NCBI GenBank assembly: GCA_044869275.1
Contig: JBIOXB010000163.1
Coordinates: 14,483-78,482 of the forward strand
DNA length: 64,000 bases
Origin: a bacterium
GTDB taxonomy: Bacteria; Zhuqueibacterota; Zhuqueibacteria; Zhuqueibacterales; Zhuqueibacteraceae
Direction of reading: 5' to 3'
Positions 1,059 through 36,187 of this stretch are shown here, piece after piece (positions within the stretch are counted from its first letter, which is position 1; each line of letters starts with the position of its first letter). The position numbers and the translations under genes were made by a program. The notes below the pieces were generated by a model, which saw only the letters and a list, made by a program, of their open reading frames with translations, had not been told where the DNA came from and searched no databases.

Positions 1059-1306
1059 CTCCCACCCCTACGCGGTCTTGCCGAAGAGAGCCATCCCGAC
1101 GTGTCGGGATCCGTTTCCGAGGCATAGATTAAATTTATTTGGTGTGACGGCTATTCCGGCGGAACCAGATTCTCTATGATCGCGTCGGTGTGAGTTCGAT
1201 AATTGATTTTGGCGAGATTGCGCCGGATGTCCCAGCCGAGCGGTTTCAATGCCTCTTCTTTCAAGCGTTGGAATTCTTTAACCAGTTACAATTTGAATTC
1301 GACGGG
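1059..1306 (-). pseudogene. Fragment of a KilA-N-domain-containing protein (C-terminal half), with stops and a hairpin insertion
   Basis: Hand translation gives PVEFKL*LVKEFQRLKEEALKPLGWDIRRNLAKINYRTHTDAIIENLVPPE*PSHQINLIYASETD, then the hairpin, then MALFGKTA*GWE. This matches the family pattern as I recall it (EFKLYLIKEFQRLK...LAKINYRIHTDAIK...YASEADVLNMALFG). Not in the ORF track. Confidence 0.8.
1093..1110. repeat. 18-bp palindrome ATCCCGA-CGTG-TCGGGAT (copy 1)
   Basis: Perfect 7-bp arms; other copies at 3832, 10530, 22481 and 36166. Confidence 0.9.
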
Positions 1307-1339
1307 TTTAAAATCAAAGTTATTTTCCTCGTTCGGAAA

Positions 1340-1795
1340 TCAAGCACGAAATTTCTCCGCCATCAACGTCACGGGATCCTTCCCATTGAGACTGCAGATT
1401 TGCCCCTTGAACACGCTGAACCTGCCGTCCTTCTCCATGCGCTCGGCAATCTGTCGATAGGTGAAGGTTGGAACAATATCCATTTTATGAAGCACGGCAT
1501 CGATCAAGTCTTTGGTCATGCCGACGCGTTCGGCTACGAGCGAATTGTAGATTTCATCGAGACACAAGTCCATCATTTGATTTGAAGTAATTCCCGGTCT
1601 CAGGCCATTCTTGTTGTGGGTGGGGATCGCATCAAAGGAGGTAATTTGCGCAGATGTTTGAAATCCTCCCGGCAGGGTGAAGTATGCCGTCTTGTTTGTG
1701 GGATTTGCTTCGATGAAGTTCACTCGGTAACAGCAATTCTTGTATTTCTTGCCCGAGCCGCATGGACAGGGATCATTCCTTCGTGCTGCGTTCAT
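1340..1795 (-). CDS. SEC-C metal-binding motif protein
   Basis: N-terminal RNDPCPCGSGKKYKNCC. Confidence 0.85.
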   Translation of the reverse strand: MNAARRNDPCPCGSGKKYKNCCYRVNFIEANPTNKTAYFTLPGGFQTSAQITSFDAIPTHNKNGLRPGITSNQMMDLCLDEIYNSLVAERVGMTKDLIDAVLHKMDIVPTFTYRQIAERMEKDGRFSVFKGQICSLNGKDPVTLMAEKFRA

Positions 1796-2079
1796 GTTGG
1801 GCCTCTTAACGTGTCATAACGAAATCATTTCCGGTGATCGTGATGAAATCGTGCATGAGAATAAAAAGGATTCTTACAGAATGACATTTACGCCAAGAAG
1901 CTCAGCAGAGAATCTAAATTTTCTGGAAATCAAGCGCGGAGTTTTTCCTCATGATGAGCTTGAGCGCAAAAAACTTGCGTGGGAGAGAACCCCATAATAT
2001 CGAAGATCAACTTCCCCCAACTCAAGCATGTACGCTCGACGGCTTGCCGTTGTGGCGCGGCATCACCAAAATCAAATAG

Positions 2080-2199
2080 CCGTATTGCTTGAAGTTGATC
2101 ATAATTGGCGCGGCTGGCCGAAGCGTTGTAATAGCCATTTTCCAGGCAGTATTTTGCAAGCAAGAGATTGTCTTGCGCCTTCTTCAAAAAGCCTTGCAT
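2080..2199 (-). pseudogene. N-terminal remnant of a HEPN-domain protein
   Basis: MQGFLKKAQDNLLLAKYCLENGYYNASASRANY resembles HEPN helices 1-2 (..A.SRAYY). Similarity is lost downstream, so the end coordinate is approximate. Confidence 0.55.
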
Positions 2200-2420
2200 A
2201 AGCACACCCTTCCAAGAAAACGGCACAAAAATATAACATATACGATGTTCAAATTCCAAATAATTCTCCTATGAGCTCACTTTTGGGGCGGCGAATGCTT
2301 CTTCGCTCTCACGCATCCCCATGTGGCGGTAACGATTTTCTGAAGTTTGACGATGATGGCGGCAAGCCTGACAAAAAGCAAGAGACCGCCTGAGCTTGAA
2401 TGGTCAAGCGAAAAAAGTTC

Positions 2421-2461
2421 TTGCCTTTTGCAACTAAACTGTATATATTGCGTATATACAG
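2421..2461 (+). promoter_or_regulatory. Sigma70-type promoter overlapped by a YtrA/GntR-type operator
   Basis: TTGCCT(2421)-17 bp-TATATT(2444). The perfect inverted repeat CTGTATATA-TTGCG-TATATACAG (2439-2461) covers the -10 box. Confidence 0.8.
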
Positions 2462-2504
2462 AATGAACACACCGTAAAGTTTACGACTCAAGCGGAGAAA
2501 CGCC

Positions 2505-3821
2505 TTGCTGCTGCATTTGACCGACCATTCCGCCGAGCCGCTGCAAAAGCAGATCAGCCGCCAAATTCTGGAAAGGATTCTGAGCGGGGAATTGGCAGCG
2601 GGTGGCGTTTTGCCGAGTGCCCGGCTGCGGTTATTGTCCGTGTTCGAGCCCGCCAAGCTGCGCGAGGTGTTGGCGGAAAATCTCAAAAAGCATTTGGCCG
2701 TGGCGGCCGTGCATCTCTTTTTGCGTGAAGAACATAACGGCGCTTTTGCCTTTCTGCCTGCTCAGGGCGAGCCCAAACCGCTCGCGATTGCGCCGCACGA
2801 TGAAATGTTGCAAGCGATTTCGCACTTGCAAACGCCGGCACCTCGCTCTGAGGTTGAGCGCGCTGCCTGCGCAAGCGTCTTGTGCGAGGAATTGGAGCGG
2901 CGCAAGATTGATCTCATGGTACCCCTGCGTGAAGCCGATTATTTTCTGGGATTCATCGGCTTGTCGCGCGATTTTTCCGGCCTGCCGCTGGCCGCACATG
3001 AAATGAATTTGCTGGCGGTGCTGGCCAACCAATTCGTCAGTGCGCTGCTGGCGTCGCGGTTGTATGTCGAAGCCGTGGAAAAGCGCCGCATGGAAAACGA
3101 GCTGGCGATCGCGCGGCAAATTCAAGCCGATCTTTTGCCCAAAGTTCTGCCGGATGATGAGTCTCTGCAAATCGCGGCCTACTCCGAAGCTTCGCGCGCG
3201 GTGGGTGGGGATTTTTATGATTATCTGCCCATCGACGCGCAGCGCTTCGGCCTGGTGATTGCCGATGCCTGCGGCAAAGGCATGCCGGCCGCGATGTTGG
3301 TTTCTCAAATCCAGGTGATTCTCAAAACCGAAGTGCGCCACCGGCGCGAGCTCATGGAAACGATCGCGCCGCTCAATCAACACGTGAAACGCCACGCCGC
3401 TCCGCGCAATTTTGTCACGCTGGTTTATGGTATTTTTGACCGCGCCACGCGGCAATTCGAGTATGTGAATGCCGGACACAATCATCCCATGCTGCTGCGC
3501 CGGGACGGCACTGCCGAGGATCTCCACACCACCGGTCCAGCTTTGGGATTGATGGCCGAGGGCCATTTTCAAACGGCTCGGGCGACTTTGCAGCCCGGCG
3601 ATACACTCCTGTTCTACACGGATGGCATTACCGAAATGATGAACGAAGCCGCGGAGCAATACGGCGAGCAACGCTTGCTCCACCTCGCGCAACAGCATCG
3701 TGGATTAGAAGCCCGCGCTTTGCTCGCGGCACTCCGGGATGAGGTGAAAGCATTTTATCCAACTTCCTTTTTGCCTGATGACCGCACGCTGATGATTTTG
3801 AAAATGAAAGAAAATGATTGA
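2505..3821 (+). CDS. GntR N-terminal stub + GAF + SpoIIE/RsbU-type PP2C phosphatase
   Basis: The first 40 aa are 27/40 identical to the adjacent GntR. PP2C motifs VGGDFYD, IADACGKG, NAGH, FYTDG and DDRT are present. Confidence 0.85.
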   Translation: MLLHLTDHSAEPLQKQISRQILERILSGELAAGGVLPSARLRLLSVFEPAKLREVLAENLKKHLAVAAVHLFLREEHNGAFAFLPAQGEPKPLAIAPHDEMLQAISHLQTPAPRSEVERAACASVLCEELERRKIDLMVPLREADYFLGFIGLSRDFSGLPLAAHEMNLLAVLANQFVSALLASRLYVEAVEKRRMENELAIARQIQADLLPKVLPDDESLQIAAYSEASRAVGGDFYDYLPIDAQRFGLVIADACGKGMPAAMLVSQIQVILKTEVRHRRELMETIAPLNQHVKRHAAPRNFVTLVYGIFDRATRQFEYVNAGHNHPMLLRRDGTAEDLHTTGPALGLMAEGHFQTARATLQPGDTLLFYTDGITEMMNEAAEQYGEQRLLHLAQQHRGLEARALLAALRDEVKAFYPTSFLPDDRTLMILKMKEND

Positions 3822-3831
3822 TCGCGTTGCG

Positions 3832-3849
3832 GTCCCGAACCGTCGGGAT
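3832..3849. repeat. Palindrome GTCCCGA-ACCG-TCGGGAT (copy 2, one outer mismatch)
   Basis: Same arms as the 1093 copy. Confidence 0.8.
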
Positions 3850-3900
3850 CGCCATGCATGAGAGGCGCTCTGCGCCTTTATTGCGACGCCCGGCTATGCT

Positions 3901-3990
3901 TGTCATTCCGTAGGAATCTTCCCAAGCACGGGCAGAGTTCCCTGTTGGATCTCGCTCTTGAGTGCCAGGGAAGATTCTTACAGAATGACA
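3901..3990. repeat. REP-like element family C
   Basis: Arms TGTCATTCCGTAGGAATCTTCCC and GGGAAGATTCTTACAGAATGACA. Related copies at 10526-10620 and 35974-36187, plus a half copy near 1868-1886. Confidence 0.85.
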
Positions 3991-4050
3991 GAAACAAATG
4001 GAAAATTCTTCACACAAAAAAAGCTACAAGTTGCATCAAACACTTCGACC

Positions 4051-4425
4051 ATGCTACTCAACCTAACCGACCTTTCCTCCGAGCCGCTGCAGAGCCAGAT
4101 CGTGCGGCAGATTCGTGCCAAGATTCTCTCGGGCGAATTGGAGGCCGAATCCGATCTGCCCTCGATTCGTGCACTGGCCAGCGCGCAGCAGGTGAGCGTG
4201 ATCACCGTGCAACGCGCCTATGAAACGCTATTGCGTGAGGGCCTCATCCACGCGCGGCGGGGCAAGGGATTTTTCGTGTCAGAATTGTTGAAAGATCAAA
4301 AAAAAGAGATGGCGCAACAAAAACTGGCAGACGGGCTCAAGCCGATTGTCGCAACGGCGCTGGCGGAAGGGTTATCGGTGCAAGACATCAAGCGCGCGAT
4401 TGAGGTTGCCGCGAATCATAAATGA
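4051..4425 (+). CDS. GntR-family (YtrA subfamily) regulator
   Basis: LPSIRALA..VSVITVQRAYETL.REGLI..RRGKGFFV with a short C-terminal domain; followed by ABC genes. Confidence 0.92.
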   Translation: MLLNLTDLSSEPLQSQIVRQIRAKILSGELEAESDLPSIRALASAQQVSVITVQRAYETLLREGLIHARRGKGFFVSELLKDQKKEMAQQKLADGLKPIVATALAEGLSVQDIKRAIEVAANHK

Positions 4426-4462
4426 TTTCAGTCAGGCCCTGTCGCTTTGGGAGAAAACAAAA

Positions 4463-5359
4463 ATGAACAACGCCTTCGCATTCAAAAACGTCATTAAAAC
4501 CTACCGCGATTTTCAGCTCGGCCCGCTGAATCTTGACTTGGAGCCGGGGGTCGTGCTAGGCTACATCGGGCCAAATGCCAGCGGCAAAACCACGACGATG
4601 CATTGCCTGGTGGGGTTGGTGCGGGCTGAGAGTGGCGAGATGGAAGTTTATGGCCGGCGCAATGATTTGAATCACCCCGAATGGAAGAGCGATCTCGGTT
4701 ACGTTGGCGACGAGCATGTGTTTTATGAAAACTGGAGCGGCGAAAGAAACCTGCGCTTTCTGGCACAGTTTTATCCGAATTGGTCGAACCAAACAGCCGC
4801 CGACCTGGCGCGGCGTTTCAACCTGCCGCTGCACAAGAAAGCGAAAGAGCTTTCGCACGGCAATCGCGTGAAGCTGGCGTTGATCGCGGCGCTGGCGCAT
4901 GCTCCCAAGCTGCTCATTTTGGACGAGCCCACTTCCGGATTGGACCCCGTGGTGCGCGCCGAGGTATTGGAAGTCTTGTTCGAAGTGGTGGAAAGCGGCG
5001 AACGCGCGATTTTTTATTCCACGCATATTCTGTCCGACATCAGCCGCCTGGCCGATGAGCTAGCCTTTTTATCCGAGGGTCAAATACTGCTGCGCACCGC
5101 CAAAGAAGATCTCATCGACCGCTGGCGGAAGATTTCATTTCGTCTCGAGGGGGAAATGACACAGTTTGCCGCCGCCGTGCAGCACCGGCAGGAAGGCAAG
5201 GATCATCAAATTATCACCGCGGATTTCGTAGCCACGCGCCGGCACCTCGGCGAGCTGGGCGCGGAAAACGTGATGGAAAACCGCATGAGCATCGACGAGA
5301 TTGCCGTGCACATTCTCAAAGGTGGCAACCATGTGGCGTCTCTTGCAAGCGGAGTTTGA
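4463..5359 (+). CDS. ABC-2 transporter ATP-binding protein (YtrB-like)
   Basis: Walker A GPNASGKTT, LSHG signature, LILDEPT, YSTH. Confidence 0.92.
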   Translation: MNNAFAFKNVIKTYRDFQLGPLNLDLEPGVVLGYIGPNASGKTTTMHCLVGLVRAESGEMEVYGRRNDLNHPEWKSDLGYVGDEHVFYENWSGERNLRFLAQFYPNWSNQTAADLARRFNLPLHKKAKELSHGNRVKLALIAALAHAPKLLILDEPTSGLDPVVRAEVLEVLFEVVESGERAIFYSTHILSDISRLADELAFLSEGQILLRTAKEDLIDRWRKISFRLEGEMTQFAAAVQHRQEGKDHQIITADFVATRRHLGELGAENVMENRMSIDEIAVHILKGGNHVASLASGV

Positions 5360-5762
5360 ATACCACAAAACCAGATTGTGGTTCGCGGTGCTGGCCGCCA
5401 TTGCGTTTTTGCTCGCCAATTTGATGCGGGATTGGGGCGGCGTTTATGGCCTGCAAGGCGTGACCATGATCATTTTTTATGCGGCGATGATCATCATCGG
5501 CACCTATGATGATCGCGAAAAGCGCGACCGCCAGCAGGCGCTGCTCCCGGTTCCGCTCACTCCATTCAGCCTCTCCCGGCTGGTGTTCATCGTCTGCTTG
5601 CAGGGCGCATTTTTTGTGCTTTGGCTTGTCGTGTTTCTGCTCCGGCATGTGCCGCACGACATGAAGGCATGGTGGAGCATGTTGTCTTTGCAAGCCACGA
5701 TATTTATCGTGATCAATTTGTTCATTAAAATCTTCGTCCGCCGGAGATCTTATTTGTCGTGA
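5331..5762 (+). CDS. ABC-2 permease-like membrane protein (short, possibly truncated)
   Basis: Overlaps the ATPase stop codon; has TM helices and an LLPV motif; only 143 aa. Confidence 0.65.
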   Translation: MWRLLQAEFEYHKTRLWFAVLAAIAFLLANLMRDWGGVYGLQGVTMIIFYAAMIIIGTYDDREKRDRQQALLPVPLTPFSLSRLVFIVCLQGAFFVLWLVVFLLRHVPHDMKAWWSMLSLQATIFIVINLFIKIFVRRRSYLS

Positions 5763-5800
5763 AGTCCCACTGAGAGAGGATGCCAGTGCCGAAAAAGATT

Positions 5801-5935
5801 CAGCCTGTGTGAAAACGCTCCGCAGGAAGCTGAAAAACTCCTTTTGATGCCGGACTCGCGAAAGCGGGTATGTAGAAAACCCAATGAAATCATGGATTCC
5901 CGCTTTCGCTGGAATGACAAATCCGACCAATTGGG
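5801..5935. mobile_element. Composite MITE remnant: family-B left end joined to a family-A element lacking its right end
   Basis: CAGCCTGTGTGAAAAC at 5801, then CAGGAAGCTGAAAAACTC at 5823, then the CGCGAAAGCGGG...GGATTCCCGCTTTCGC.GGAATGAC core. Confidence 0.7.
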
Positions 5936-6334
5936 CTATTTCGGCGCCGCCAACTTGCGTAAGCCATAAGCCTGCAAAATTCCGAGCAACAAGACAACAT
6001 CAGCGACGATCGCGACCATCCAGTTCCCGATAGTCGTGAGCACTCCCCACGCCACAACCCATGCGCTCCCCACCACCCATCCGAAATTGAGCACCACGGC
6101 GACAACTGCTTGCGCGCGATTGATGATCGAGCGGCGCGCGTTGAGAAACAATGCCGCCGCGTAAAGCCAAAGTGCCAGGCCGATGCCGGTCAAAATGCTC
6201 GCTTGCTGCAGTCCCAGCAGATTGGCCACCGGTCCGGCGGCAAGGACAAGGATCGTACCGCCCAACAGTGAAAATGCGCTGTCTGCCTGCAGAGCGCGGC
6301 GAAGCAATTCCGGATTGCGAGATTGTGGCTGCAT
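5936..6334 (-). CDS. Small integral membrane protein (about 4 TM)
   Basis: LLRRAL.AD...; hydrophobic helices; ATG at 6334. Confidence 0.75.
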   Translation of the reverse strand: MQPQSRNPELLRRALQADSAFSLLGGTILVLAAGPVANLLGLQQASILTGIGLALWLYAAALFLNARRSIINRAQAVVAVVLNFGWVVGSAWVVAWGVLTTIGNWMVAIVADVVLLLGILQAYGLRKLAAPK

Positions 6335-6596
6335 GTTCAAGGCTCCGAATTTGTAGTGAAACCGAATCAACGAAGGAATTTAAAAATCCCCGCCGGGTTT
6401 GCCGTCGGCGATGAAGAAAAATACGCAAAAGGAGCCGGGGATTCTACCTGCCCGATAATCTTGTGTGGCAACCTTATAAAGTAGGCAGTGGTCAATGCGT
6501 CTGAATCGGCACATTACAAATTGAGCAACCTCACAACCCCAATAAGCTGGCAGCAAGGATAATCGCCAACGGAGGGAGGGAACCCCGGCGATAAAA

Positions 6597-7754
6597 TCAG
6601 TTTTTCATCCGTGGGCTTGTCTCTATCCGGTGAGAGTTTGTTCCGGCAGGACCGGCATTACTGCGAAATTGCGAGGGTGTTATTCCGGTGATTTTTTTGA
6701 AGGCGGCGTTGAACGCGGAGATGGAGCTGAAGCCGGCGGTGAAGCCGATTTCCGCAATGTTGAGGTGGGCGCGCGCCGGGTCGCGCAGCAGTTGTTGTGC
6801 CTCGGCGACGCGATGGCGGTTCACAAACTCGAAGAAATTCTGCTGCAGTTTTTCGTTGATGATTTGCGACAAATGATGCGGCGGCAGGGCGAGCATTTTG
6901 GCAAGCCCGGGCAAATTCAAGCCGCTGTCCCGGTGAGGCTTTTGGCGTGCCATGAATTCTTGCAGCTTGTGCAAATACTCCTCGGCTTTGCCCGTGGTCA
7001 GGGTCGACTTTTGGTATTTGCTCGCAGCCGGCATGGACGCTAAAGCAGCCCGCATTTCGCCGCTGAAGATCTCCGGCTGGCGCAATGCAAAGTAGCCGAT
7101 CGCATAGAGAACGAACGAAAGAAAAAGCCAGGGCAGTTGCGCCAGCTCATTTTGAAAACCGAAGAGCTGCCAGACGAAGACCAGCATCCAATCCAGCGCG
7201 CAAAAGCAGAGCAGAAAGTGCAGCCAGTTCAACTGCAGGTGCTCGAGCGAAGAAAAGGATGATTGCAGACGATGCGCGTGCTGGCGAAGATCGTATAGTG
7301 CGGCGGACAGATAGACCAGCACGTGCGCAAGCGCGAGCCAATTGAGACCCGAAAGAGGAGTGAAATATATTACTGCAGGCTGATTGAATTTGCCGAGTTC
7401 GCCGGGCCATGCCAAAACAAGATACACCAGAACGTAAACGAGCGCCGGCAGAAAATGGAAAAGCTGCTGGCGTTCGCCTCTAAAAGACGGCCCGGTCAAA
7501 GCTTTTGCATGGAACCACAGCAACGGACCGAAACACAAAATGGTGGCGATCTCAACCGCCCGAAGCTGAGCTGCGGCAAACTCATGTTGCGCATGTGCCG
7601 CTGCGCGCCAGGCCAAGGCGAGAGCAAACAGCAGCAACAGGCCCGCGAGAAAGCGATTGCCGGCGCGGTTGCCCCGCGGCAAGTTGAAGAGCGCGAGGGA
7701 CAGGAATATGCCTTGGGTCGCACCTGCGAGCAAAATGACTGAGAACCAATCCAC
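6597..7754 (-). CDS. Membrane-anchored AraC-family regulator
   Basis: About 7 TM segments, then HLSQIINE..NFFEFVN.HRV..A and IAEIGFTAGFSSISAFNAAFKK.TG.TPSQFR. Confidence 0.92.
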   Translation of the reverse strand: MDWFSVILLAGATQGIFLSLALFNLPRGNRAGNRFLAGLLLLFALALAWRAAAHAQHEFAAAQLRAVEIATILCFGPLLWFHAKALTGPSFRGERQQLFHFLPALVYVLVYLVLAWPGELGKFNQPAVIYFTPLSGLNWLALAHVLVYLSAALYDLRQHAHRLQSSFSSLEHLQLNWLHFLLCFCALDWMLVFVWQLFGFQNELAQLPWLFLSFVLYAIGYFALRQPEIFSGEMRAALASMPAASKYQKSTLTTGKAEEYLHKLQEFMARQKPHRDSGLNLPGLAKMLALPPHHLSQIINEKLQQNFFEFVNRHRVAEAQQLLRDPARAHLNIAEIGFTAGFSSISAFNAAFKKITGITPSQFRSNAGPAGTNSHRIETSPRMKN

Positions 7755-7765
7755 GTCAATTGTCC

Positions 7766-10348: not shown

Positions 10349-10525
10349 GGCCGTCCTTTTCGCACTTTGGTGTTGCGCGGAAGTTTGGTTTTGAGCATCT
10401 TGTCATGATCTTGCAGCGCAGTGAAGATAATAAACCTTCGCCCCTGCGTCAAAAGGAAAAATACGCGTTTTCAGGATTGACACCTGAATAGTACTACAAC
10501 GTTAGGTCCACGCCGCCACCAGAAA

Positions 10526-10620
10526 TGTCATCCCGATTCATCGGGATCTTCCCAGGCGCTGGGCACAATGCCGAAATAGGCTGTGATATTGTATCATGGG
10601 AAGATTCTTTCAGAATGACA
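10526..10620. repeat. REP-like family C copy whose left arm carries the ATCCCGA-TTCA-TCGGGAT palindrome (10530-10547)
   Basis: TGTC[ATCCCGATTCATCGGGAT]CTTCCC...GGGAAGATTCTTTCAGAATGACA. Confidence 0.85.
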
Positions 10621-10681
10621 GTGCTGGTTTTTTTGTGCAAAAAAACAGACTTAGCGTTGTAGTAATAATTAAGGAGAATAA

Positions 10682-11290
10682 ATGGGACTCGAAGCAACCT
10701 GCCGCGCCAGTTTTGACGGAAAATCTTCCGCGGGCAAAGCGCATCTGGAGACGGCAGAATTGTCATTTCACGGCGATTTCAAATTGAAAATCCCGCTGCA
10801 GCGAATCGAATCGTTCGCAGCCAAGGCTGGAAAATTGCAGGTGAAATTCCCGCAAGGCACGGCGACTTTCGAGCTGGGTCCGGAGGCGGAAAAATGGGCG
10901 CTCAAGATACGCAATCCCAAAAGCACAATCGACAAGCTCGGCGTCAAGCCGGATTTCAAAGTTTCCGTGCTCGGCATTTCCGAGGAAGACTTCTGGCAGC
11001 AATTGCGCGGCCGCACGCAAAATATTACCGCCGGCAAAGCTGCCCGGGAATCGGATTTGATTTTTTTCGCCGTGAGCAATGCCCAAGCGCTCGATAAATT
11101 GAAGACGTTGCAAAATTCGCTCAAGCGGAATGGCGGTATTTGGGTGATTTGGCCGAAAGGGCAGGCGCACATCAAAGAGGACATTGTGCGCGCGGCTGCT
11201 TTGGCACAAGGTCTGGTCGATGTCAAGGTCGTGAGCTTTTCCGAGACGCACAGCGGCTTGAAGCTGGTCATTCCTGTGGCGAGACGGTGA
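10682..11290 (+). CDS. DUF3052-like protein
   Basis: AGGAG RBS; DKLGVK...GIWVIWPKG...GLVDVKV..FS.THSGLKLV. Confidence 0.75.
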   Translation: MGLEATCRASFDGKSSAGKAHLETAELSFHGDFKLKIPLQRIESFAAKAGKLQVKFPQGTATFELGPEAEKWALKIRNPKSTIDKLGVKPDFKVSVLGISEEDFWQQLRGRTQNITAGKAARESDLIFFAVSNAQALDKLKTLQNSLKRNGGIWVIWPKGQAHIKEDIVRAAALAQGLVDVKVVSFSETHSGLKLVIPVARR

Positions 11291-11298
11291 TCTGGAGT

Positions 11299-11440
11299 TG
11301 GATTGTGGAGGGGAGATCGTAGATCGTGGATAGTAGATAGTAGATCGTGCGTCGTCGATTTGGGCAATCTACACAATCTACTATCCACGATCCACCATCC
11401 ACGATCCACAATCCACGATCCACAATCCACCATCCCTCCC
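11299..11440. repeat. Inverted heptamer tandem arrays (RGATMGT)n...(ACVATCC)n
   Basis: Read directly between two convergent genes. Confidence 0.9.
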
Positions 11441-11454
11441 CCGCGCCTTCAAAA

Positions 11455-13047: not shown

Positions 13048-13061
13048 GTGCCGCCCGCTGG

Positions 13062-20833: not shown

Positions 20834-20854
20834 TTCTCCGCGAGCCGGTTGGCG

Positions 20855-22385: not shown

Positions 22386-22617
22386 GGCCCACGGAAATGG
22401 AACTCCCACGGAAAGAAGCTTTTCATTTCAGTTCCATTTCCGTGGGCTAAAGCTTTGCTGCTCGAAGGGCTTCAGTGTTCATCCCGACGCTTCGGGATGA
22501 AAACCTGGCGTAGTCCATTAAGAGTGAGGTCTTTGCTTTTAGAATAAAAGTTTTGAACGCAGATTGCCGGAGATGAACGCAGACAAAATCAGCGAAAATT
22601 TGCGTTCATCTGCGTCC
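22386..22617. repeat. Cluster of REP-like hairpins including ATCCCGA-CGCT-TCGGGAT (22481-22498)
   Basis: GCCCACGGAAATGGAACT/AGTTCCATTTCCGTGGGC stem; TTC[palindrome]GAA; AGATGAACGCA/TGCGTTCATCT stem. Confidence 0.8.
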
Positions 22618-22860
22618 AAAAAATTTGGTTGCGGCACGCCCGCGTTGGGATGATGAAGTCAAAAAATGTGCCGATGGAGAACTTGCAGGAAAGAAATTGA
22701 ATCGCAGAAAACTAACGAGATACTGATCGTGAGGCGGAAAAACTTTGCAAGGGGAAGTGTGAATTGATGCTTGCGAGCAACACCCGGGTGTCAGCAGGCA
22801 GGGTGGCGCAATGTATTTGCAAGGAATTGGCACTGTTGCATGAAAGCAACGGGGGGCGGA

Positions 22861-23056
22861 TGGGAGTGGGAGACTTGGAGATGGGGAGACTTGGAGACGG
22901 GGAGACTTGGAGATGGGGAGACTTGGAGATGGGGAGACTTGGAGATCGAGAGATGAGAATAGTTTCATCATCTCCCTGTCACCCACTCTCCCCGTCTCCC
23001 ACTCTCCCCGTCTCCCACTCTCCCCATCACCCACTCTCCCCATCACCCACTCTCTC
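22861..23056. repeat. Inverted 17-mer tandem arrays (GGAGACTTGGAGAYGGG)n...(CCCACTCTCCCCRTCW)n
   Basis: About 4-5 units per side; overlaps the 3' end of the sigma54 regulator. Confidence 0.9.
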
Positions 23057-28245: not shown

Positions 28246-28394
28246 ATTTTTGTCATCGCTTCAAAGTCATGGCCAAGTAAGAGGTTGGATAGGAGGGCTG
28301 TAATGTGAGGGGAATTTGTCACAATGTCAAGCATGGAGGGTGGGCTTGGGGGGAGGCAAAAGCGGCAGCCATGGAACCGCTGGCACGTTCTCAA

Positions 28395-28961
28395 TCATTC
28401 ATGCGCGCTGACACGAAGGTCATCATTGTTGGCGCCTCCGCCAGAATCGGCAGGGGCAAAAAGAGAAGGGCGCTTTTTGAGCCGTCGCAGCAGTTGCAGC
28501 ATGCGTAAACTCTGCTTGATGCCGTTTCCGATGGCGCCGAGGAGTAATGCCGCGAAAATTCTCATGCACAACAACATCGCCAAACACAGGGGCGTTATCC
28601 GCAAGGCCTTCTTCAGAGTTTGATAAAGCAAACCCCACCTTTTCGCTCCCACATGCCAGCCCCAAAATGTTGACCACGAGGCATAACTGCACAGCAACGC
28701 AATCAGCGCGAGCGGCAGGCCGGCATGCCAGCGCGCCGAGGCGATGGACCAACCAAACAAGCCGCCGCAGAACCCAAACCACAGGCTGCGGCGCATGCGC
28801 TTGCGGAACAAGCCAAAGCCGCAATACAGGCATAGCATCTCGATTTCGCTGTTAGGATGGGGAACAGCGCAAGCAGCCTCATAGAGCTCTTTACAGTTGG
28901 CGCAGAATCCAATCATCGCACTTTTGGAGGTCAGAGTCCGGGTCATTTTGCTTGGCTGCAA
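28395..28961 (-). CDS. Hypothetical membrane protein with CxxC...CxxC zinc ribbon
   Basis: CANC and CLYC followed by TM helices; start codon uncertain. Confidence 0.45.
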   Translation of the reverse strand: MQPSKMTRTLTSKSAMIGFCANCKELYEAACAVPHPNSEIEMLCLYCGFGLFRKRMRRSLWFGFCGGLFGWSIASARWHAGLPLALIALLCSYASWSTFWGWHVGAKRWGLLYQTLKKALRITPLCLAMLLCMRIFAALLLGAIGNGIKQSLRMLQLLRRLKKRPSLFAPADSGGGANNDDLRVSAHE

Positions 28962-29161
28962 TTACTTTCTATCGGCGCGGGTATATTACCCGAGCCGTCC
29001 CCCTCACGGCTCGGGCTGGGCGGCAGCCTTTGTCTGCCAAAAATCACCGCTTCGTCGAATATAGCACAACGATATCGGCAGGTCGAGTTCGACAACGTTG
29101 CCACAAGCTTGAAATCGCGCACGCCTGCGCCTGCCGTCTCCTCATGAGTTTCATGACATCC

Positions 29162-29306
29162 AGACTGTGTGAAAACGCTTGGTTTCAACGCCGGCTGAGC
29201 CTGTCGAAGCCGGATTCTTGAACTTAGCTCCCTTCGACAGGCTCCCTTCGACAAGCTCCCTTCGACAAGCTCAGGGTGCGGCATTCTCAAGTTTTCACAC
29301 AGTCTG
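29162..29306. mobile_element. MITE family B (145 bp), 4-bp target duplication ATCC
   Basis: Ends AGACTGTGTGAAAAC and GTTTTCACACAGTCTG; ATCC at 29158-29161 and 29307-29310; internal 14-bp unit GCTCCCTTCGACA(G/A) x3. Confidence 0.88.
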
Positions 29307-29547
29307 ATCCTTTTCAAACCATATGCCATCTCCTGCACTTTCTGCAAACTGAAGTGCGATGTAAAAACAGGAAATTACGAGCTCAGCAAAAGGGCTGCAA
29401 TGTAGTCTTGACGGGAGGTGTTGCCTAAACACGACAGTCCAATCAGCAAAAGCCGCAACAGGGTGAACTTTTTCTGCCATTTAAGGGTTGTTGCATGCCG
29501 GCAACAGCGGGTAGGCAGGTGTTCAGAATGAGGCGCATGTTCGCGGC

Positions 29548-29576
29548 TTGACATTCAGGCGAAAACTCAGTACCAT
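29548..29576 (+). promoter_or_regulatory. Sigma70-type promoter
   Basis: TTGACA-17-TACCAT. Confidence 0.65.
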
Positions 29577-29626
29577 GAATTGGATTTTTGAGTTCCAACC
29601 CCAGCCTTCACAAGTCGATCCGGTTT

Positions 29627-32488
29627 ATGAAGTATTTTGACGAGCAGCCCAATCTTTTTCGCGTGCTTTTGGTGTCGGCCGCATTTTTCTTCATCGGCTT
29701 GGCAGCGGTAAATTTTCATCGCTACGCCTCTCTCGTCACCGATGAGAATCTCTTCAGCACCTCGCCTTCTCGTATTCACTTCTCACGAAATGTGCTGGGC
29801 CAGCTCGATCGTCGCAGCAGCGCTGCCGGCAATGTTGTGCCGGACACGATCAAAACCGGCGATCTGCTGCTGGAGATCGACCAAAACAAATTCGAGACGG
29901 CGCAGGAGGCAAGGGCGTATGTGGAGTCGCTGCGCGGCGAGGCGGAATTTGAAGTGAAAGTGTTCCGGCCGGCCAGTGGCCGTCGCATGGTGTTTAACCT
30001 GCAGGCCGCAAGCCTGCCCGACAGCTTTCTCGTGCAACTGCCGCCCAGCGTTTATGTGTACGACGTATTACCAGGTGGCGCTTCTGATCGCGCCGGTTTG
30101 CGCACAGGCGATCTTATTCTGCACATCAATGGGCAAAATTTTCGCGACGCTGGCGAAGCCGATAAAGTCATGCGGCGTGCACAAAGCGACCGCGCCATAG
30201 CCTACGATATTTTCCGCGCCGGCAGCTTCTTGACACTGCATGTGCACCTCGCGCGGCTGGGCACGAATATCGCCGTGCTCGTGAGTTTTGTGTGCGGGTT
30301 GTTTTTTTTGGGCGTGGCATTGTTCATCGGATTGCAGCGCCCGCAATTGCACGCTGCCCGGTTGTCCGCTGCGATGCTGCTCGCGTTCTCCTTTCCGGTC
30401 ATGGTGCTGCATCAACGCCACCTCGTGCTCGACCATTGGACGCTGACCATCCGTTTTACGCTCGTGGCGTGCTTGCTGCTGGGCGCCGCCTGCGCGTTTC
30501 ACAACAGCTTGTACTTTCCCAAGGAACGTCCGGAGCTCATCAGCAAGCGCTGGCCGATTTTTGCGCCGTATTTGATCGCGGGATTTTGGTTTGTCCTGCA
30601 AGTGCTTTTGTTCTTTTATATTGGCGGGGAGGTCAGCGGCATACCGTTTCTCTTTGGCTTGATCTCGCTCGGATTGTATGGCTTGTTCTTGTTCTTCCGC
30701 TATCGCAAGCAGCGCTCCGCGGAGTATCACAAACTCAATCGCGCCATCAAAACTGCGAGTCTGGTGGCGGCAGGCCTGGCGCTTACGATCGCCGTGCCGG
30801 CGGCGAGCGGTGCACAGGATGCTTCGCGCATCGGCTTCATCGCCATTCCGCTCACGCTGATTCCGTTCTCCTATCTCTACACCATCGGCCGCTATCGCTT
30901 GCTCGACCTGAACCTGCGCGTGCGCCGCAACATTCAATACACCATCTCCTCGTGGCTGTGGGGCGCACTGCTCGCGGGCGCATTTTTGTTTTTGCTCTTC
31001 AAGCTGCCGCACTTGGCGCTTGACTTTCCTCATTTGCGCCTCACCGGCACGTATCTTGAAATGGTGGAAGAGCCGCTGCCGCCGGCACAACGTGAAGCGT
31101 TGGAGAAAATCGTGATGATCGGCCTGGCCTTCGGCGCGTTTTATGTGTTGCGCAGCGCCAATCGCGCCGGGCAGTTGTTTATTGCGCGCAAGTTCTATCG
31201 CACCAGCTATGATTATCGCCGCGCCGTGAATGAAATGGCGGAAGTGATGGCCACCAAGCTGGGCATGATCGATCTGGCCAAAGGCCTGGCACAAAAACTG
31301 GCCGAACACATCCAGCTCAAGCGCGTGGGGGTGTTGTTTTTCCGCGATCAACGGGAGGCGTGTTGCATGGAAGGGCACGGTTTTGTTCATGACGAATGGA
31401 AGTCGTTTTGTCTCTCGGTTGACCAGCAACTCGTGCACGTGCTGCAAAAGTTTCGCAGCGAATCGCGTTTCAGTGTGGACTATCTGCCCGATCATTTAAA
31501 AGCGGAGTTTGAGCGCCAGGGCTTCGCGCATCTCTTTCCCATTCGCTTCAAGGAAAAACTCGTGGGCACGCTGTTGATCGGCGAGAAGCTTTCGGAAGGA
31601 TCTTTTCATGCGGAGGATCTCAGCTATCTCGCCGCGGTTTCCAAACAAGCTTCGCTGGCGATCGAGAATGCCTTTCTGTATGAGGAACTGGCTGAACAAG
31701 AACGTTTGAAACACGAACTGGCGATCGCCCGGCGCATCCAGCTGGCCTCCCTGCCGCAAAAGACGCCTCTCCTCGAGGGCCTGGAAATCGCCGGCGTTTC
31801 CATTCCCGCGCTGGAAGTGGGCGGCGACTACTTCGATTATCTCAACGGCGTGCCCTCCTCCAGCCCGTCCACCGAAAGCGTTGTGGCCGGCGAGGGCGCG
31901 GATCATATCACCATTATCGTCGGCGATGTCAGCGGCAAAGGGACTTCGGCGGCCCTCTACATGTCCAAAGTACAGGGCATTATGCGCTCGCTGCATGATT
32001 TCGGGCTGTCGCCACGCGAATTGTTCGTGCGCGCCAATCACTTGTTGCGCCAAGCCATGGAACGAACTTCCTTCGTGACCTCCATCGGCGCGCGCTTTGA
32101 AGCGCAAGCACGCTCTTTGCGCATGGCGCGCGCCGGCCACCTGCCTTTGTTTCATTACCGTGCGCAAACCGGCCTCGTGGAAAAAATCACGCCCAAGGGT
32201 CTGGGCATGGGCCTCGACGACGAAAAACTGTTCGCCGCCGAGCTCGAGGAGAAAAAACTGAGCTACGCCAGCGGCGATGTTTTCTTGTTCGTGACCGACG
32301 GCGTCACCGAAGCGCATAACGGCGCCGGCTCGGAATTCGGCGAAGACAGCGTGAGCGAAATATTGTGCCGCCATTCCTCCGCCTCCGCTGAAAAAATTCG
32401 CGATCACCTCATTGCCGCGGTCAAAACTTTCGCGCAGAATACCACTCAGCATGATGACCTCACGGTGGTGGTGGTGAAAGCTAAGTGA
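29627..32488 (+). CDS. Membrane sensor phosphatase: PDZ domains + multi-TM + GAF + SpoIIE/PP2C
   Basis: GGASDRAGLRTGDLIL.ING; AIENA.LY; VGGDYFD, GDVSGKG, RAGH, VTDG, HDDLT. Confidence 0.9.
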   Translation: MKYFDEQPNLFRVLLVSAAFFFIGLAAVNFHRYASLVTDENLFSTSPSRIHFSRNVLGQLDRRSSAAGNVVPDTIKTGDLLLEIDQNKFETAQEARAYVESLRGEAEFEVKVFRPASGRRMVFNLQAASLPDSFLVQLPPSVYVYDVLPGGASDRAGLRTGDLILHINGQNFRDAGEADKVMRRAQSDRAIAYDIFRAGSFLTLHVHLARLGTNIAVLVSFVCGLFFLGVALFIGLQRPQLHAARLSAAMLLAFSFPVMVLHQRHLVLDHWTLTIRFTLVACLLLGAACAFHNSLYFPKERPELISKRWPIFAPYLIAGFWFVLQVLLFFYIGGEVSGIPFLFGLISLGLYGLFLFFRYRKQRSAEYHKLNRAIKTASLVAAGLALTIAVPAASGAQDASRIGFIAIPLTLIPFSYLYTIGRYRLLDLNLRVRRNIQYTISSWLWGALLAGAFLFLLFKLPHLALDFPHLRLTGTYLEMVEEPLPPAQREALEKIVMIGLAFGAFYVLRSANRAGQLFIARKFYRTSYDYRRAVNEMAEVMATKLGMIDLAKGLAQKLAEHIQLKRVGVLFFRDQREACCMEGHGFVHDEWKSFCLSVDQQLVHVLQKFRSESRFSVDYLPDHLKAEFERQGFAHLFPIRFKEKLVGTLLIGEKLSEGSFHAEDLSYLAAVSKQASLAIENAFLYEELAEQERLKHELAIARRIQLASLPQKTPLLEGLEIAGVSIPALEVGGDYFDYLNGVPSSSPSTESVVAGEGADHITIIVGDVSGKGTSAALYMSKVQGIMRSLHDFGLSPRELFVRANHLLRQAMERTSFVTSIGARFEAQARSLRMARAGHLPLFHYRAQTGLVEKITPKGLGMGLDDEKLFAAELEEKKLSYASGDVFLFVTDGVTEAHNGAGSEFGEDSVSEILCRHSSASAEKIRDHLIAAVKTFAQNTTQHDDLTVVVVKAK

Positions 32489-32670
32489 AAAGCAAAAAGA
32501 AAACAGAAAAAAGCAGCTGAGCGCTAAGTTGCTGTTTTCTTTTTGCTGTTTGTTGTTCAAATTATGGGGGAATCATGGAAGCGAAACCTTAAAGCAAACA
32601 GCAAATAGAAAACAGAAAGAAGAGGTGGAGGATAATTTGCTGTTTTCTTTTTTCTCTTTGCTTTTTGTCG
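32487..32670. repeat. Degenerate inverted heptamer arrays (AAA(C/G)AG-like units)
   Basis: aaagcaaaaagaaaacagaaaaaagcag/ctgttttctttttgctgttt occurs twice. Confidence 0.7.
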
Positions 32671-32744
32671 TTCCTCTGCATATCCTTTCATTCCCTCGAA
32701 ATTCAATAAGACTCGCGAATTTCCTGTTTCAAATCAAGTTTTGC

Positions 32745-32860
32745 TTGACATCAAACCGCTTGCGTCGTATCATTCTCCGCAATTCGGCGACGAAAAGCCG
32801 GCGCTGAGCGTTTGACCCTCCTCTTTGTTTCGTAGGATGCCCTCTCGCGGGCCTTTTTTT
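32745..32860 (+). promoter_or_regulatory. Promoter plus short structured leader ending in a terminator-like hairpin (candidate attenuator/riboswitch)
   Basis: TTGACA-17-TATCAT; hairpins at 32785-32800 and 32819-32837; GCCC/GGGC followed by T7. Confidence 0.55.
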
Positions 32861-32910
32861 GCGCGGTTGCGGATCTCGATCTCGAACCCCTCTTGTGACA
32901 TTGCCATTAT

Positions 32911-33462
32911 ATGCCGAACAGAAAACTAGTGAATTTGAGAGTTAACGGCTCGACCTCTGAAGTCGCCGTACGGCCTTACGACGTGCTGCTGGACGTCGTG
33001 CGCCAAAACCTCCATCTCACCGGCACCAAGCGCGGTTGTGACATGGGCACCTGCGGCTGTTGCACGGTGATCATTGACGGTCGCGCACGCTTGTCCTGCC
33101 TGACACCGGTTTTGGAAGCCGCCGGCCGCGAGGTGACCACCATTGAAGGCTTGAAAAGCGGGGGCGACTTGCATCCGCTGCAGCGCGCGTTTGCGGAACA
33201 CGGTGGCTCACAATGCGGCTTTTGCACCGCCGGCTTCATTATGACTTCGAAAGCTTTTCTCGACCGGCATCCGCTTCCCACCCGCGGTGAGATCGCAGAA
33301 GCCATTTCCGGAAATTTGTGCCGCTGCACGGGATACATCAAGATTGTGGATGCGATCGAGGCCGTGGCGCACAATGCCAGGAATGGAGAGCTTCAGCGTG
33401 CTGCCAACCTCCCCGTCGCAAACCCCTGCCCTGTCCTTCAGAAGGAACCCTGTGACGCGTGA
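32911..33462 (+). CDS. Molybdoenzyme [2Fe-2S] subunit (HcrC/CoxS-like)
   Basis: GTKRGCDMGTCGCCTV, QCGFC, GNLCRCTGY. Confidence 0.92.
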   Translation: MPNRKLVNLRVNGSTSEVAVRPYDVLLDVVRQNLHLTGTKRGCDMGTCGCCTVIIDGRARLSCLTPVLEAAGREVTTIEGLKSGGDLHPLQRAFAEHGGSQCGFCTAGFIMTSKAFLDRHPLPTRGEIAEAISGNLCRCTGYIKIVDAIEAVAHNARNGELQRAANLPVANPCPVLQKEPCDA

Positions 33463-33585
33463 GCACGGCATTCAATTCTGCCAAGATTTTTTCAGAATCA
33501 CACGGTTGGGGGTGTGTAAAAGTAAACTTGACAAAGCACGAGAGCGCAGGGGCCAGTTGTATTTTCTCTGCACGGAGATCAAACT

Positions 33586-35898
33586 ATGCCCAACGTCATC
33601 GGCAAACCGGTTCCCCTCATTGATGGTTTGAAGAAAACCACGGGTGAAGGCGTTTACACCGACGACCTCAAATTTCCCGGCATGCTGGTCGGGAAGATTT
33701 TGCGCAGCCCGCTGCCGCATGCGCGCCTCGCAAGGATCGACACCCGCAAAGCGGAAGCATTGCCCGGCGTGCATGCCGTGGTCATCGGCAAAGAAGCGCC
33801 GAACACCTTTGGGGTGTTGCCGATCAGTGAAGATGAAACCGCGCTGGCGGTGGACAAGACCATCTTCATCGGCGACAACGTTGCCGGAGTTGCCGCAGAT
33901 GACGAGGAGATCGCCCTCGAGGCCCTGCGCTTGATCGAAGTGGAATATGAAGTGCTGCCGGAGTATCGCAAGATTGAGGACAGCCTGAAACCCGCCGCAG
34001 CACCGATTCATCCCGGCACCGTCAACGGTACGAACATTCATAAAGAGGTCGATCAGAATTTTGGCGACGTGCAAGCCGCGCGATTACGCAGCGCGTTGGT
34101 GCGTGAGGCACAGTATGATTTCGCCGGCGTGACCCACGGTTTTACCGAGCCGCATTGCGTCATCGCGCATTACGAGGCCGACGATCGCATGACGGTGTGG
34201 TCCGCGCAGCAGGTGCCGCATTATCTGCACCGCGCGCTCGCCCAGGTTTTGGAAATGCCCATGCATCGCATTCGCGTCATCCGCCCGATGGTGGGCGGCG
34301 CGTTCGGCGGCAAGAGCGATCCTTTTCCCCATGAGATGGTGGCGGCGCTGCTCTCGCGCAAATGCCGCCGGCCGGTGAAGATACTGTTCGATCGCGAGGA
34401 GGTTTTCATCAGCAATCACGGCCGCCATCCCACCCAAACCAAAATCGCGATGGGCATCGACCAGAGCGGCCATCTTACGTTTCTGGATTTGAAAGCGCTC
34501 ATCGACGGCGGCGCGTGGGGCAGCTTCGGCGTCGTCACCACGTACTACAACGGCGTGCTCAGCATGGGGCCGTATGACATTCAAAACTTTCGCTACAGCG
34601 GCAAACGCGTCTACACCAACAAAGCGCCCAGCGGTGCGATGCGCGGCCACGGCGCGGTCAATTCCCGCTTCGCCATGGAAACGTTGATTGACGAGCTCTG
34701 CGAAGCCGCGAATCTCGACCCCTGCGAGGTGCGACTCAAAAATCTCTTGCGGGGAAACTGCATCACCGCCAACGGCTTTCGCATCACCAGCAACGGCACG
34801 CGCGAATGTATTGAGCGTGCGCGCGCCGCTTCGGACTGGAATGAGAAATTTCGCAAGCTGCCGTTCGGCCGCGGCCTCGGTGTGGCCTGCGGCTTTTACA
34901 TCAGCGGCAGCGCGCATCGCATTCACTTCAACGATCTGCCCCAATCCACCGTCCATCTTAAAATAGACATGGACGGCGGCATCACCGTGCATTGCCTGGC
35001 TGCGGAAATCGGCCAGGGCAGCGACACCATGCTGGCGCAATGTGTGGCCGAACCGTTGGGTGTGAAGCTGGACCGGCTGCGCATTTTTTCGAGCGATTCG
35101 GACGCCGATCCGATTGACCTGGGTTCGTATTCGAGCCGGGTCACCTTCATGGCCGGCAACGCCGCGCGCGAGGCGGCGCTCAAGATTCGCGAAAAACTTG
35201 TGCGCGCGGCGCAGCAGCTCACCGGTTATGCGGCCGACGGCTTTGTTTTGGAAAACGAAGAAATCATTTACACGCGCGATCCGCGCGTACGCGTGACGTT
35301 CATGCAAGCTCTGGAAAAGGCGTTGGCGAACAATGGCGCGCTCCTCGCGAAAGGCAAGTATATGGGCCCGCCGCCCATCGGCGGCAAGTTCAAGGGCGCG
35401 CGCGCCGGGCTTTCGCCGACGTATACTTTCCAATGTTACATCGCCGAAGTTTCCGTCGATGCCGAAACCTTCGAGCCGCGTGTGGAAAAAGTCTGGGCCG
35501 CGCACGATTGCGGCAAAGCGCTCAACCCGCTCGCCGTGGCCGGACAAATCGAAGGCTGCATTCATATGGGCCTGGGGCAGGCCTTGATGGAAGAGATGGC
35601 TTACAATCGCGGCAACATTTTGGGGGCGAATTTCTTGGATTATCGCACACTCACGCCCATGCAGATGCCGGAAGTCGAAGTCATCATCGTGGAAAGCGAC
35701 GATCCTGAAGGGCCATGGGGCGCGAAGGAGGCGGGCGAGGGGCCGTTGCTGCCGATTCTGCCCGCCGTAGCCAACGCGATCTATGATGCCATTGGCGTGC
35801 GCCTGCGCAGCTTGCCGATGACGGCGGATAAAATTTGGAAGGCGGTGCACGACAAACGTGACAAGCGTAAAATCCGCCCGCGCGCGGTGGCGGTTTGA
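33586..35898 (+). CDS. Xanthine-oxidase-family molybdopterin subunit, 4-hydroxybenzoyl-CoA reductase alpha (HcrA)-like
   Basis: FGVLPI, QVP.YLH, GAMRGHG, GSYSSRVTFM.GNA, GKALNPLAV.GQ, AKEAGEG. Confidence 0.88.
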   Translation: MPNVIGKPVPLIDGLKKTTGEGVYTDDLKFPGMLVGKILRSPLPHARLARIDTRKAEALPGVHAVVIGKEAPNTFGVLPISEDETALAVDKTIFIGDNVAGVAADDEEIALEALRLIEVEYEVLPEYRKIEDSLKPAAAPIHPGTVNGTNIHKEVDQNFGDVQAARLRSALVREAQYDFAGVTHGFTEPHCVIAHYEADDRMTVWSAQQVPHYLHRALAQVLEMPMHRIRVIRPMVGGAFGGKSDPFPHEMVAALLSRKCRRPVKILFDREEVFISNHGRHPTQTKIAMGIDQSGHLTFLDLKALIDGGAWGSFGVVTTYYNGVLSMGPYDIQNFRYSGKRVYTNKAPSGAMRGHGAVNSRFAMETLIDELCEAANLDPCEVRLKNLLRGNCITANGFRITSNGTRECIERARAASDWNEKFRKLPFGRGLGVACGFYISGSAHRIHFNDLPQSTVHLKIDMDGGITVHCLAAEIGQGSDTMLAQCVAEPLGVKLDRLRIFSSDSDADPIDLGSYSSRVTFMAGNAAREAALKIREKLVRAAQQLTGYAADGFVLENEEIIYTRDPRVRVTFMQALEKALANNGALLAKGKYMGPPPIGGKFKGARAGLSPTYTFQCYIAEVSVDAETFEPRVEKVWAAHDCGKALNPLAVAGQIEGCIHMGLGQALMEEMAYNRGNILGANFLDYRTLTPMQMPEVEVIIVESDDPEGPWGAKEAGEGPLLPILPAVANAIYDAIGVRLRSLPMTADKIWKAVHDKRDKRKIRPRAVAV

Positions 35899-35973
35899 TT
35901 GATCAGGCCTTTCTTCATGCCTTACAGCGTTTTTCAATTGGAGGTGAAGATTAGAAGCAATCACATCTCGGCA

Positions 35974-36187
35974 TGTCATTCCGTGGGAATCAGACTGTGT
36001 GAAAACGCTTGGTTTCAACGCCGGCTGAGCTTGTCGAAGCCGGATTTTTGAACTTAGCACCCTTCGACAGGCTCAGGGTGCGGCATTTCCAAGTTTTCAC
36101 ACAGTCGAAATCTTCCCTAGGGCTTGGTAAAAACCCATTCGGAATTGTGCCCACTGCGAGGGAAGATCCCGAAGCTTCGGGATGACA
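35974..36187. repeat. REP-like family C copy interrupted by MITE B; right arm carries ATCCCGA-AGCT-TCGGGAT (36166-36183)
   Basis: Removing the MITE and one AATC restores TGTCATTCCGTGGGAATCTTCCC. Confidence 0.85.
35992..36108. mobile_element. MITE family B (117 bp), 4-bp target duplication AATC
   Basis: Same ends as the 29162 copy; AATC at 35988-35991 and 36109-36112; one internal 14-bp unit. Confidence 0.88.

Follow-up and report, generated by a model that had tools for sequence, protein, structure and literature searches.

The five palindromes and their genomic setting

The stretch analysed here (the window) comprises 64,000 nt of contig JBIOXB010000163.1 (positions 14,483 to 78,482; GenBank:GCA_044869275.1) from a bacterium of the Zhuqueibacteraceae. 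It contains five copies of a palindrome, TCCCGA-N4-TCGGGA (the element), against 0.26 expected, and five or more were reached in 0 of 100 shuffles. All five palindromes listed in a first-pass annotation of the window, with their five different loops, were recovered (Table 1); two of them lie in arms of REP-C, a family of repetitive extragenic palindromes (REPs). Comparison with related sequences revealed that the element is a 16-nt unit that stands in place of target bases, with exact junctions and without duplication, in many unrelated hosts, and that the ends of the lost stretch are mostly complementary. As had been supposed, the window encodes no obvious mover, and none of the genes flanking the five copies suggests one.

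The unit is the 16-mer with T..A ends, because two copies in genome G055 abut directly, with zero bases between them (G000 denotes the genome of the source assembly, other G numbers other genomes, L numbers loci, and C numbers contigs of G000). The first-pass annotation had described an 18-bp unit with AT ends, anchored at AT dinucleotides. The bases just outside the 16-mer are, however, usually those of the host, most frequently A..T and also G..T, G..C, A..C and C..C; flanks vary with the host, and only a purine before and a pyrimidine after are favoured. The arms are 6-7 bp long. In G000, 92 copies have a 4-nt loop and 13 a 5-nt loop, where 0.34 are expected per loop length; a scan of loop lengths 0 to 12 gave one copy each at 3 nt and 6 nt and zero at the remaining lengths. 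The element is mostly extragenic, 32 of the 105 copies lying in open frames of at least 150 codons.

Loops are genome-specific and centred on a perfect palindrome, namely AGCT in G000 and G044 and CGCG in G049. Between REP arms with near-identical flanks, loops differed at 0.32 per site versus 0.065 for the flanks (19 non-independent pairs), and stem mismatch was 0.05 per site. The two end bases of the loop show paired covariation at 114 of 121 metagenome loci, in 72 of 128 cases in a GTDB sample and in 34 of 92 in G000. Copying of the loop from the target was considered and rejected, since only tRNA-Gly (TCCA) fits and KilA-N, REP-C and tRNA-Asn do not. Copies also nest inside the loops of other copies (L038 and L185), and at L116 the palindrome belongs to a tandem unit repeated five times.

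Sister hairpins with T..A ends (TCCCGC, TCCGCC, TCCGTC and TTCCGA types) were found at like kinds of site. One of them, TCCCGC-N3/4-GCGGGA, occurs genome-wide in G000 (e.g., C197:84657, C203:22044 and C25:24570) and acts alike, replacing 8 nt in a CGTC-type REP and filling REP-C arms; it also breaks the start of a gene that we take to encode a kinase.

Table 1. Copies of the element and repeats in the window (positions of the window)
Feature	Position	Strand	Remarks
16-nt element, loop CGTG	1094..1109	n/a	in KilA-N gene remnant; replaces 11 nt, net +5, frameshift
KilA-N-domain gene remnant	1068..1303	-	KilA-N genes of relatives, intact or longer, are 76-79% identical in DNA
16-nt element, loop ACCG, G..T flanks	3833..3848	n/a	intergenic, between SpoIIE-domain gene and GntR gene
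REP-C doublet	3902..3989	n/a	both arms empty (N9 = TCCGTAGGA and TCTGTAAGA)
REP-C doublet	10527..10619	n/a	left arm filled, right arm empty (N9 = TCTGAAAGA)
16-nt element, loop TTCA	10531..10546	n/a	in REP-C arm; 11 nt replaced
16-nt element, loop CGCT	22482..22497	n/a	in second, unrelated repeat family; replaces 7 nt (GACAAGC or complement)
16-nt element, loop AGCT, perfect palindrome	36167..36182	n/a	in REP-C arm
Arrays of 7-8-nt units, as inverted pairs	22849-23054, 11299-11435, 55350-55436, 62512-62584		between genes
Further repeat, two copies	29161-29304, 35991-36106		92-96% alike, with CCTTCGACA-type hairpins; second copy abuts the filled REP-C at 36167
CGTC-type REP doublets	5823-5932, 59433-59565, 61577-61712		GTCATTCCCGCGAAAGCGGGAATCC family; like hairpins flank a small GIY-YIG gene at C33:35390

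Bases lost at the target and the pairing of their ends

The empty allele of the KilA-N site, which had been assumed in the first-pass annotation, could now be aligned. The site is covered by 6 of 11 relative loci, and all six hold 9 nt between AT or AC and AT, reading D-VLN-M or D-LLN-M. In three KilA-N relatives, including a same-genus genome, it reads ATGTT-TTG-AACAT, a hairpin with a 5-bp stem and a 3-nt loop; the 11 nt replaced are TGTTTTGAACA on the gene strand in three relatives. The G012 orthologue of the remnant matches PF04383 (E 8e-23), and a related-strain contig has equal length at this site with two 5′ changes.

The distinction drawn earlier between empty and filled REP-C arms, with AT-N9-AT in the former, was borne out genome-wide. 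Among 201 arms in G000, 134 are empty (GTCAT[N9]ATCTT), three of these being in the window, 40 carry CCCGA-N4-TCGGG and 22 the sister hairpin. An empty arm has the same geometry as the KilA-N site, i.e., a 13-nt hairpin with a 5-bp stem and a 3-nt loop, and because both sites are such hairpins a loss of 9 nt was seen twice. At least six REP-C flank clusters contain empty as well as filled arms, one cluster having three states, and the element is spread over several REP-C subfamilies in G000. Two of the empty arms read ATCCCGAAGGGAT, and 17 more read CCCG(G/C/T)AGGG. It was also noticed that six REP-C doublets in G000 (on C50, C86, C190, C212, C223 and C250) are collapsed to GTCA(T/G)-palindrome-ATGAC, as if the interior had been lost between two filled arms or the whole swapped out; one of them is common to G001.

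A fixed loss of 9 nt, as first proposed, does not extend to the other hosts. The repeat at 22482 has the empty form TTTTCA[GACAAGC]TGAAA, so that 7 nt gave way to 16 nt and only an A and a T were retained; this second family carries the element at two positions in G000, and a 7-nt tandem family also hosts it. At 3833, the region is of full length in one related strain and 7 letters shorter in another, i.e., 9 nt for 16, as read from single contigs of depth 4-6 (4.4 for the shorter one); in G001 the entire intergenic stretch is missing and gives no empty allele. Four tRNA copies of G000, three of tRNA-Asn and one of tRNA-Leu, each lost 10 nt. A first set of tRNA copies from other genomes (27 rows) revealed losses of 5, 6, 10, 12, 14, 15 or 17 nt. 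A second set (57 rows, 43 metagenome loci), limited to inserts with a stem of at least 5 bp, revealed losses of 3-14 nt including the new lengths 3, 4 and 9; the unfiltered list, covering 52 of the 57 tRNA-bearing loci, has noisy rows, and L293 was dropped as a duplicate of L170. Overall, the lost length is 3-17 nt across hosts. Neither target duplication nor bases common to the insert and the lost stretch were found at the junctions of the 27 tRNA-copy swaps (0/27), and bases are lost at KilA-N and REP-C, in agreement with the earlier proposal of replacement rather than insertion with duplication.

The element was also found in the 16S (with a 3-nt loop), 23S and RNase P RNA of G000. At the corresponding RNase P RNA helices of relatives, the loops are shorter or a different hairpin variant is present; no empty counterpart was obtained for 16S, and the L155 site failed to align. 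In G016 the element is in frame in a coding gene (EEPGGF versus EDPDKSGF), which we take to encode prolyl-tRNA synthetase (ProRS). At L162 (G000 C223:162649), a copy lies in a 554-codon frame, 3 nt being added in frame relative to G012. The counterparts of the ProRS, L162 and RNase P sites have CCC(G)..GG in common with the element. A copy at L158 (C168:55363) is at the start of a long open frame that is probably trpC-like. In three relatives from two families (L138, L144 and L145), a conserved non-coding stretch that looks like 6S RNA has the 18-nt palindrome at one and the same hairpin, and the G000 counterpart (C90:3222-3413) has a diverged 18 nt in that place.

Examination of the lost stretches revealed that they begin and end with complementary bases. 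In 20 sites, which are not fully independent (14 tRNA positions of other genomes and 6 sites of G000), the ends pair over at least 1 bp in 19 (5.2 expected), at least 2 bp in 15 (1.4 expected) and at least 3 bp in 9 (0.4 expected); with equal-length segments of G000 tRNAs as the null, the observed counts were never reached in 200,000 simulations. For tRNA sites alone the count was 15/15, and in the second, separate metagenome set four of six new position classes were paired, both misses being in the T loop. Replaced stretches include the whole anticodon arm of tRNA-Pro and the T arm of tRNA-Asp. In tRNA-Asn and tRNA-Met, the replaced ACC-N4-GGT just after the anticodon loop is a mini-palindrome of the DNA and no stem of the tRNA. 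The boundaries are set by target structure rather than by length, a small stem-loop or its tip being replaced in most cases, and the paired-end rule is strong but not absolute. We hold the replacement and its geometry with high confidence.

Spread, a linked GIY-YIG gene and competing explanations

G000 has 76 copies of the 18-nt AT..AT form of the element. Forty relatives have between 0 and 3 each, the same-genus genome having one; therefore, a burst took place in this lineage. A GTDB scan revealed at least 121 loci, in Bacteroidota, Ignavibacteria, Cloacimonadota, Patescibacteria, Chloroflexi, Poribacteria, Planctomycetes, Acidobacteriota, WOR-3 and others. Fifty genomes drawn from these loci have 1-198 copies each (0-1 in the reversed control), each genome having been chosen for at least one copy and the genomes not being independent; those with a single copy may represent chance matches. 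The 198 copies of G055 are at varied sites, and the Flavobacterium genome of L031 has 66 copies. The tRNA copy of G020 carries a hairpin of the TCCGCC type, and TCCGYC-N3-6-GRCGGA has 77 matches in this genome versus 2-30 in the other 40 genomes searched.

On C109 of G000, a small GIY-YIG gene (88 aa) is located between tRNA-Asn fragments each carrying the element, 68 bp from a copy. Its product matches PF01541 (E 2e-15). Profile hits to solved structures were 1zg2, 1ywl and SLX1 only, with UPF0213 proteins and SLX1 being closest, and the structure model (pLDDT 93.5) had SLX1 in the top Foldseek rows. Slx1 is described as a structure-specific nuclease that cuts at junctions and has stand-alone bacterial relatives (PMC1564403). 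Relatives of the C109 gene adjoin tRNA genes and broken tRNA copies. In one clade, represented by 79 metagenome loci, the hairpin was found at 64 of the loci (121 copies in 85 kb, control 2), and 57 of the 79 contain an intact tRNA (53 Asn and 4 Arg). Positions 38-47 of tRNA-Asn are replaced in 37 of these loci by 24 different inserts, the flanks matching six host tRNA variants, and in tRNA-Arg positions 39-47 are swapped, again between paired bases. The hairpin is physically linked to the GIY-YIG gene at tRNA loci. At L204, L205 (G005 and G017), L177 and L358, genes of the same GIY-YIG family have tRNA arms next to them that were replaced by other hairpin types (TGGCGC..GCGCCA and long TCCCG.. 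stems).

A dedicated enzyme is probably behind the swap. We see about an even chance that the element is a non-autonomous mobile sequence that takes the place of a small stem-loop, or of its tip, in single-stranded DNA, and that the small Slx1-like GIY-YIG nuclease makes the cuts. The target would fold while single-stranded or extruded, and both stem strands would be cut at paired positions and the tip removed; an existing folded copy would serve as donor and be joined in by host ligation or repair. Filled repeats would then multiply with their host family, and copies could land in the loops of other copies. The GIY-YIG protein would do the cutting, and its identity is the weakest step of this reading, enzyme and chemistry both being presumed.

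Several observations weigh against the nuclease-driven exchange. Several of the 20 sites in the pairing analysis are homologous tRNA positions and four are in REP hairpins; the pairing rule is broken by T-loop swaps (3-6 nt) and by one position in the second repeat family; and the four lost hairpins tested are weak (0 to -0.8 kcal/mol). The Foldseek match to SLX1 is at an E value of only ~0.003, and joining of DNA is beyond a nuclease alone. Among the 50 genomes, the GIY-YIG gene is present in 23 of 31 with at least seven copies versus 2 of 19 with at most five, whereas the control, four-helix-bundle genes (PF05635), gave 31/31 versus 9/19 (G055 being below the family cut-off). In 35 of the 50 genomes (19 with at least 19 copies and 16 with at most three), Y1 transposases also follow copy number, with 16/19 versus 4/16. 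For reverse transcriptases (RVT_1) the counts were 3/19 versus 4/16. Co-occurrence across genomes was rejected as proof of the enzyme, since control families behave alike. G055, with 198 copies, has no hit to the GIY-YIG query and no GIY-YIG frame under 235 aa, and no hit to the query was found in G086, G073 and G051. The hairpin type of the tRNA copy is the abundant type of the genome in G000, G020 and partly G031, but not in G005, G017 and G076: the TGGCGC hairpin beside the gene is unexpanded in G005 and G017 (3-4 copies), and the TTCCGA-type hairpin of the G076 tRNA copies is unlike the abundant hairpin of that genome. One further search pattern, which ordinary CGTC-type REPs match too, was left out of the counts. 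The hairpin may also be a passenger of, or a shield for, a duplicated tRNA piece in a nuclease module, blocking recombination or cutting; as it may ride on the tRNA duplicate, the 37 tRNA-Asn cases cannot each be counted as a proven event.

The same swap could be carried out by a Y1 HUH enzyme of the RAYT/IS200 type through two single-strand transfers from donor hairpin to target hairpin, which we consider unlikely. HUH enzymes, as described in PMC6006769, not only cut but also join single-stranded DNA at hairpins; the Y1 counts given above, with G055 and G086 among the positive genomes, and one element copy of G000 located 122 bp from a Y1 gene are consistent with such a role. However, the junctions have neither a GTAG-type foot nor a fixed cleavage dinucleotide, five of the six Y1 genes of G000 are more than 4 kb from any copy or on contigs with none, and G044, G068 and G073 (38-77 copies) have no Y1 hit at E 1e-12. 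A route with no dedicated enzyme appears somewhat less likely again. The hairpin would then originate in REP arms, where a fold-back leads to template switching, and would spread at stalled hairpins through polymerase switching or microhomology repair and later through gene conversion. For this route speak the arm ATCCCGAAGGGAT, which is one fold-back from the commonest filled REP-C form, the 17 similar arms, the CCC(G)..GG already held by the ProRS, L162 and RNase P counterparts, and the covariation of the outer loop bases. It is plausible for REP-C but not for tRNA or KilA-N, as KilA-N and 27/27 tRNA swaps lack a local source and common junction bases; identical 6-bp arms recur across phyla, and copy number is patchy among close kin (76 versus 1 in the same genus).

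Writing of the arms by a reverse transcriptase (RT) from an RNA template at a break, in the style of a retron, a diversity-generating retroelement (DGR) or telomerase, would account for constant arms with a variable centre, and G000 has three RT genes. An RT or DGR origin is nevertheless disfavoured and very improbable: RT genes are mostly absent from high-copy genomes (at E 1e-10, a cut-off by which divergent RTs could be missed), no full element copy was found within 11 kb of the RTs in G000, and the arm adenines are stable, unlike in DGR mutagenesis. Two loci of G000 (C184:4200-5817 and C154:35058-40259) have RT genes near four-helix-bundle hits in a DGR-like layout. The original proposal, in which exactly 9 nt between two AT dinucleotides are swapped, can hardly be correct, and neither can its null, that filled arms are only an ancestral REP subfamily. 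AT-N9-AT is true of the KilA-N site and REP-C arms, and one filled REP copy is common to G000 and G001, but losses span 3-17 nt, flanks vary, and the element is found in coding genes as well as in tRNA, rRNA and RNase P RNA.

Significance and comparison with known systems

Where the spread of repeats too short to code has been described, the cases considered here are given as insertions. In the present case, the junctions are exact in dozens of empty and filled pairs and follow a structural rule, which makes cut sites predictable. If enzymatic, the swap would be a minimal hairpin-for-hairpin DNA editing reaction; it would account for the odd helices that recur in 16S, 23S and RNase P RNA and for short in-frame inserts found in essential proteins of poorly known phyla, and would assign a function to a nuclease family that is common but uncharacterised. 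We suggest tentatively, and with more doubt than confidence, a new class of mobile DNA, namely a 16-nt hairpin exchanging stem-loop tips, driven by an 88-aa tRNA-associated Slx1-like nuclease, each clade with its own hairpin type. Such a class would amount to a natural DNA replacement system guided by structure, and in many phyla it would rewrite protein loops, copies of tRNAs and the variable helices of rRNA and RNase P RNA. Neither this element nor the replacement of hairpins was described in the literature searched; the supplements of PMC11893778 and PMC3733652, in which related motifs could be listed, lay outside that search. Tiny mobile palindromes as such are already known; new here are the replacement and the paired-end rule, and the phenomenon would be categorically new if the swap is enzymatic.

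One close parallel is SDR5, a small dispersed repeat of heterocyst-forming cyanobacteria, which like the element is non-coding, lands precisely and has no known mover, at about 20 nt. SDR5 is cited as inserting cleanly between two nucleotides of HIP1 (GCGATCGC) (PMC4390886 and PMC13756078), whereas the element is found in many phyla, is not bound to one target sequence and takes away 3-17 nt; its KilA-N and tRNA targets are not HIP1 and lose bases. The GIY-YIG nuclease Ssn (cd10448) is described as cutting single-stranded DNA beside NTS/SRM hairpins that flank its own gene and also occur genome-wide (PMC11893778). On C109 of G000 and in 64 of the 79 metagenome loci, a small single-domain GIY-YIG gene similarly has the hairpin repeat on its flanks, and in G000 this repeat too is spread over the genome. 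The candidate, however, shares 33% identity with the SRM-type GIY-YIG protein of G000, is located at tRNA genes and is similar to UPF0213/SLX1, and the account of Ssn in PMC11893778, as far as it was available, is of cutting beside the hairpin, with neither mobility nor replacement reported. REP-C was also considered as an SRM and rejected, since the published SRM pattern matches 0/201 REP-C arms, filled or empty.

GTAG- or CGTC-tagged REPs with their RAYT/TnpA(REP) are likewise short, mostly extragenic palindromes of high copy number (92-105 copies of the element in G000), and some REPs that sit inside other small palindromes or in frame in genes are described as inserted (PMC3733652 and PMC6006769). 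The element differs in having no 4-nt tag, 16 versus 20-40 bp, symmetric ends and replaced target bases, and REPs are its hosts here; of the six Y1 genes of G000, one has a copy nearby. Mitochondrial GC clusters (yeast GC42) share with it GC-rich palindromes, patchy distribution, fast turnover, nesting or merging and the lack of a known mover, but as described they are about 42 nt long with AG/ACT target duplications (PMC4478555), whereas the element duplicates nothing and deletes target bases. Miniature inverted-repeat transposable elements (MITEs) are given as 70-300 bp with terminal inverted repeats of 15-30 bp (PMC3733652). Compared with these and other insertion sequence derivatives, the element is only 16 nt long with arms of 6-7 bp, leaves no target duplication in the 27 tRNA swaps and loses bases at the KilA-N and REP sites; a retron or DGR product is set apart by the presence of RVT_1 in only 3 of the 19 high-copy genomes.

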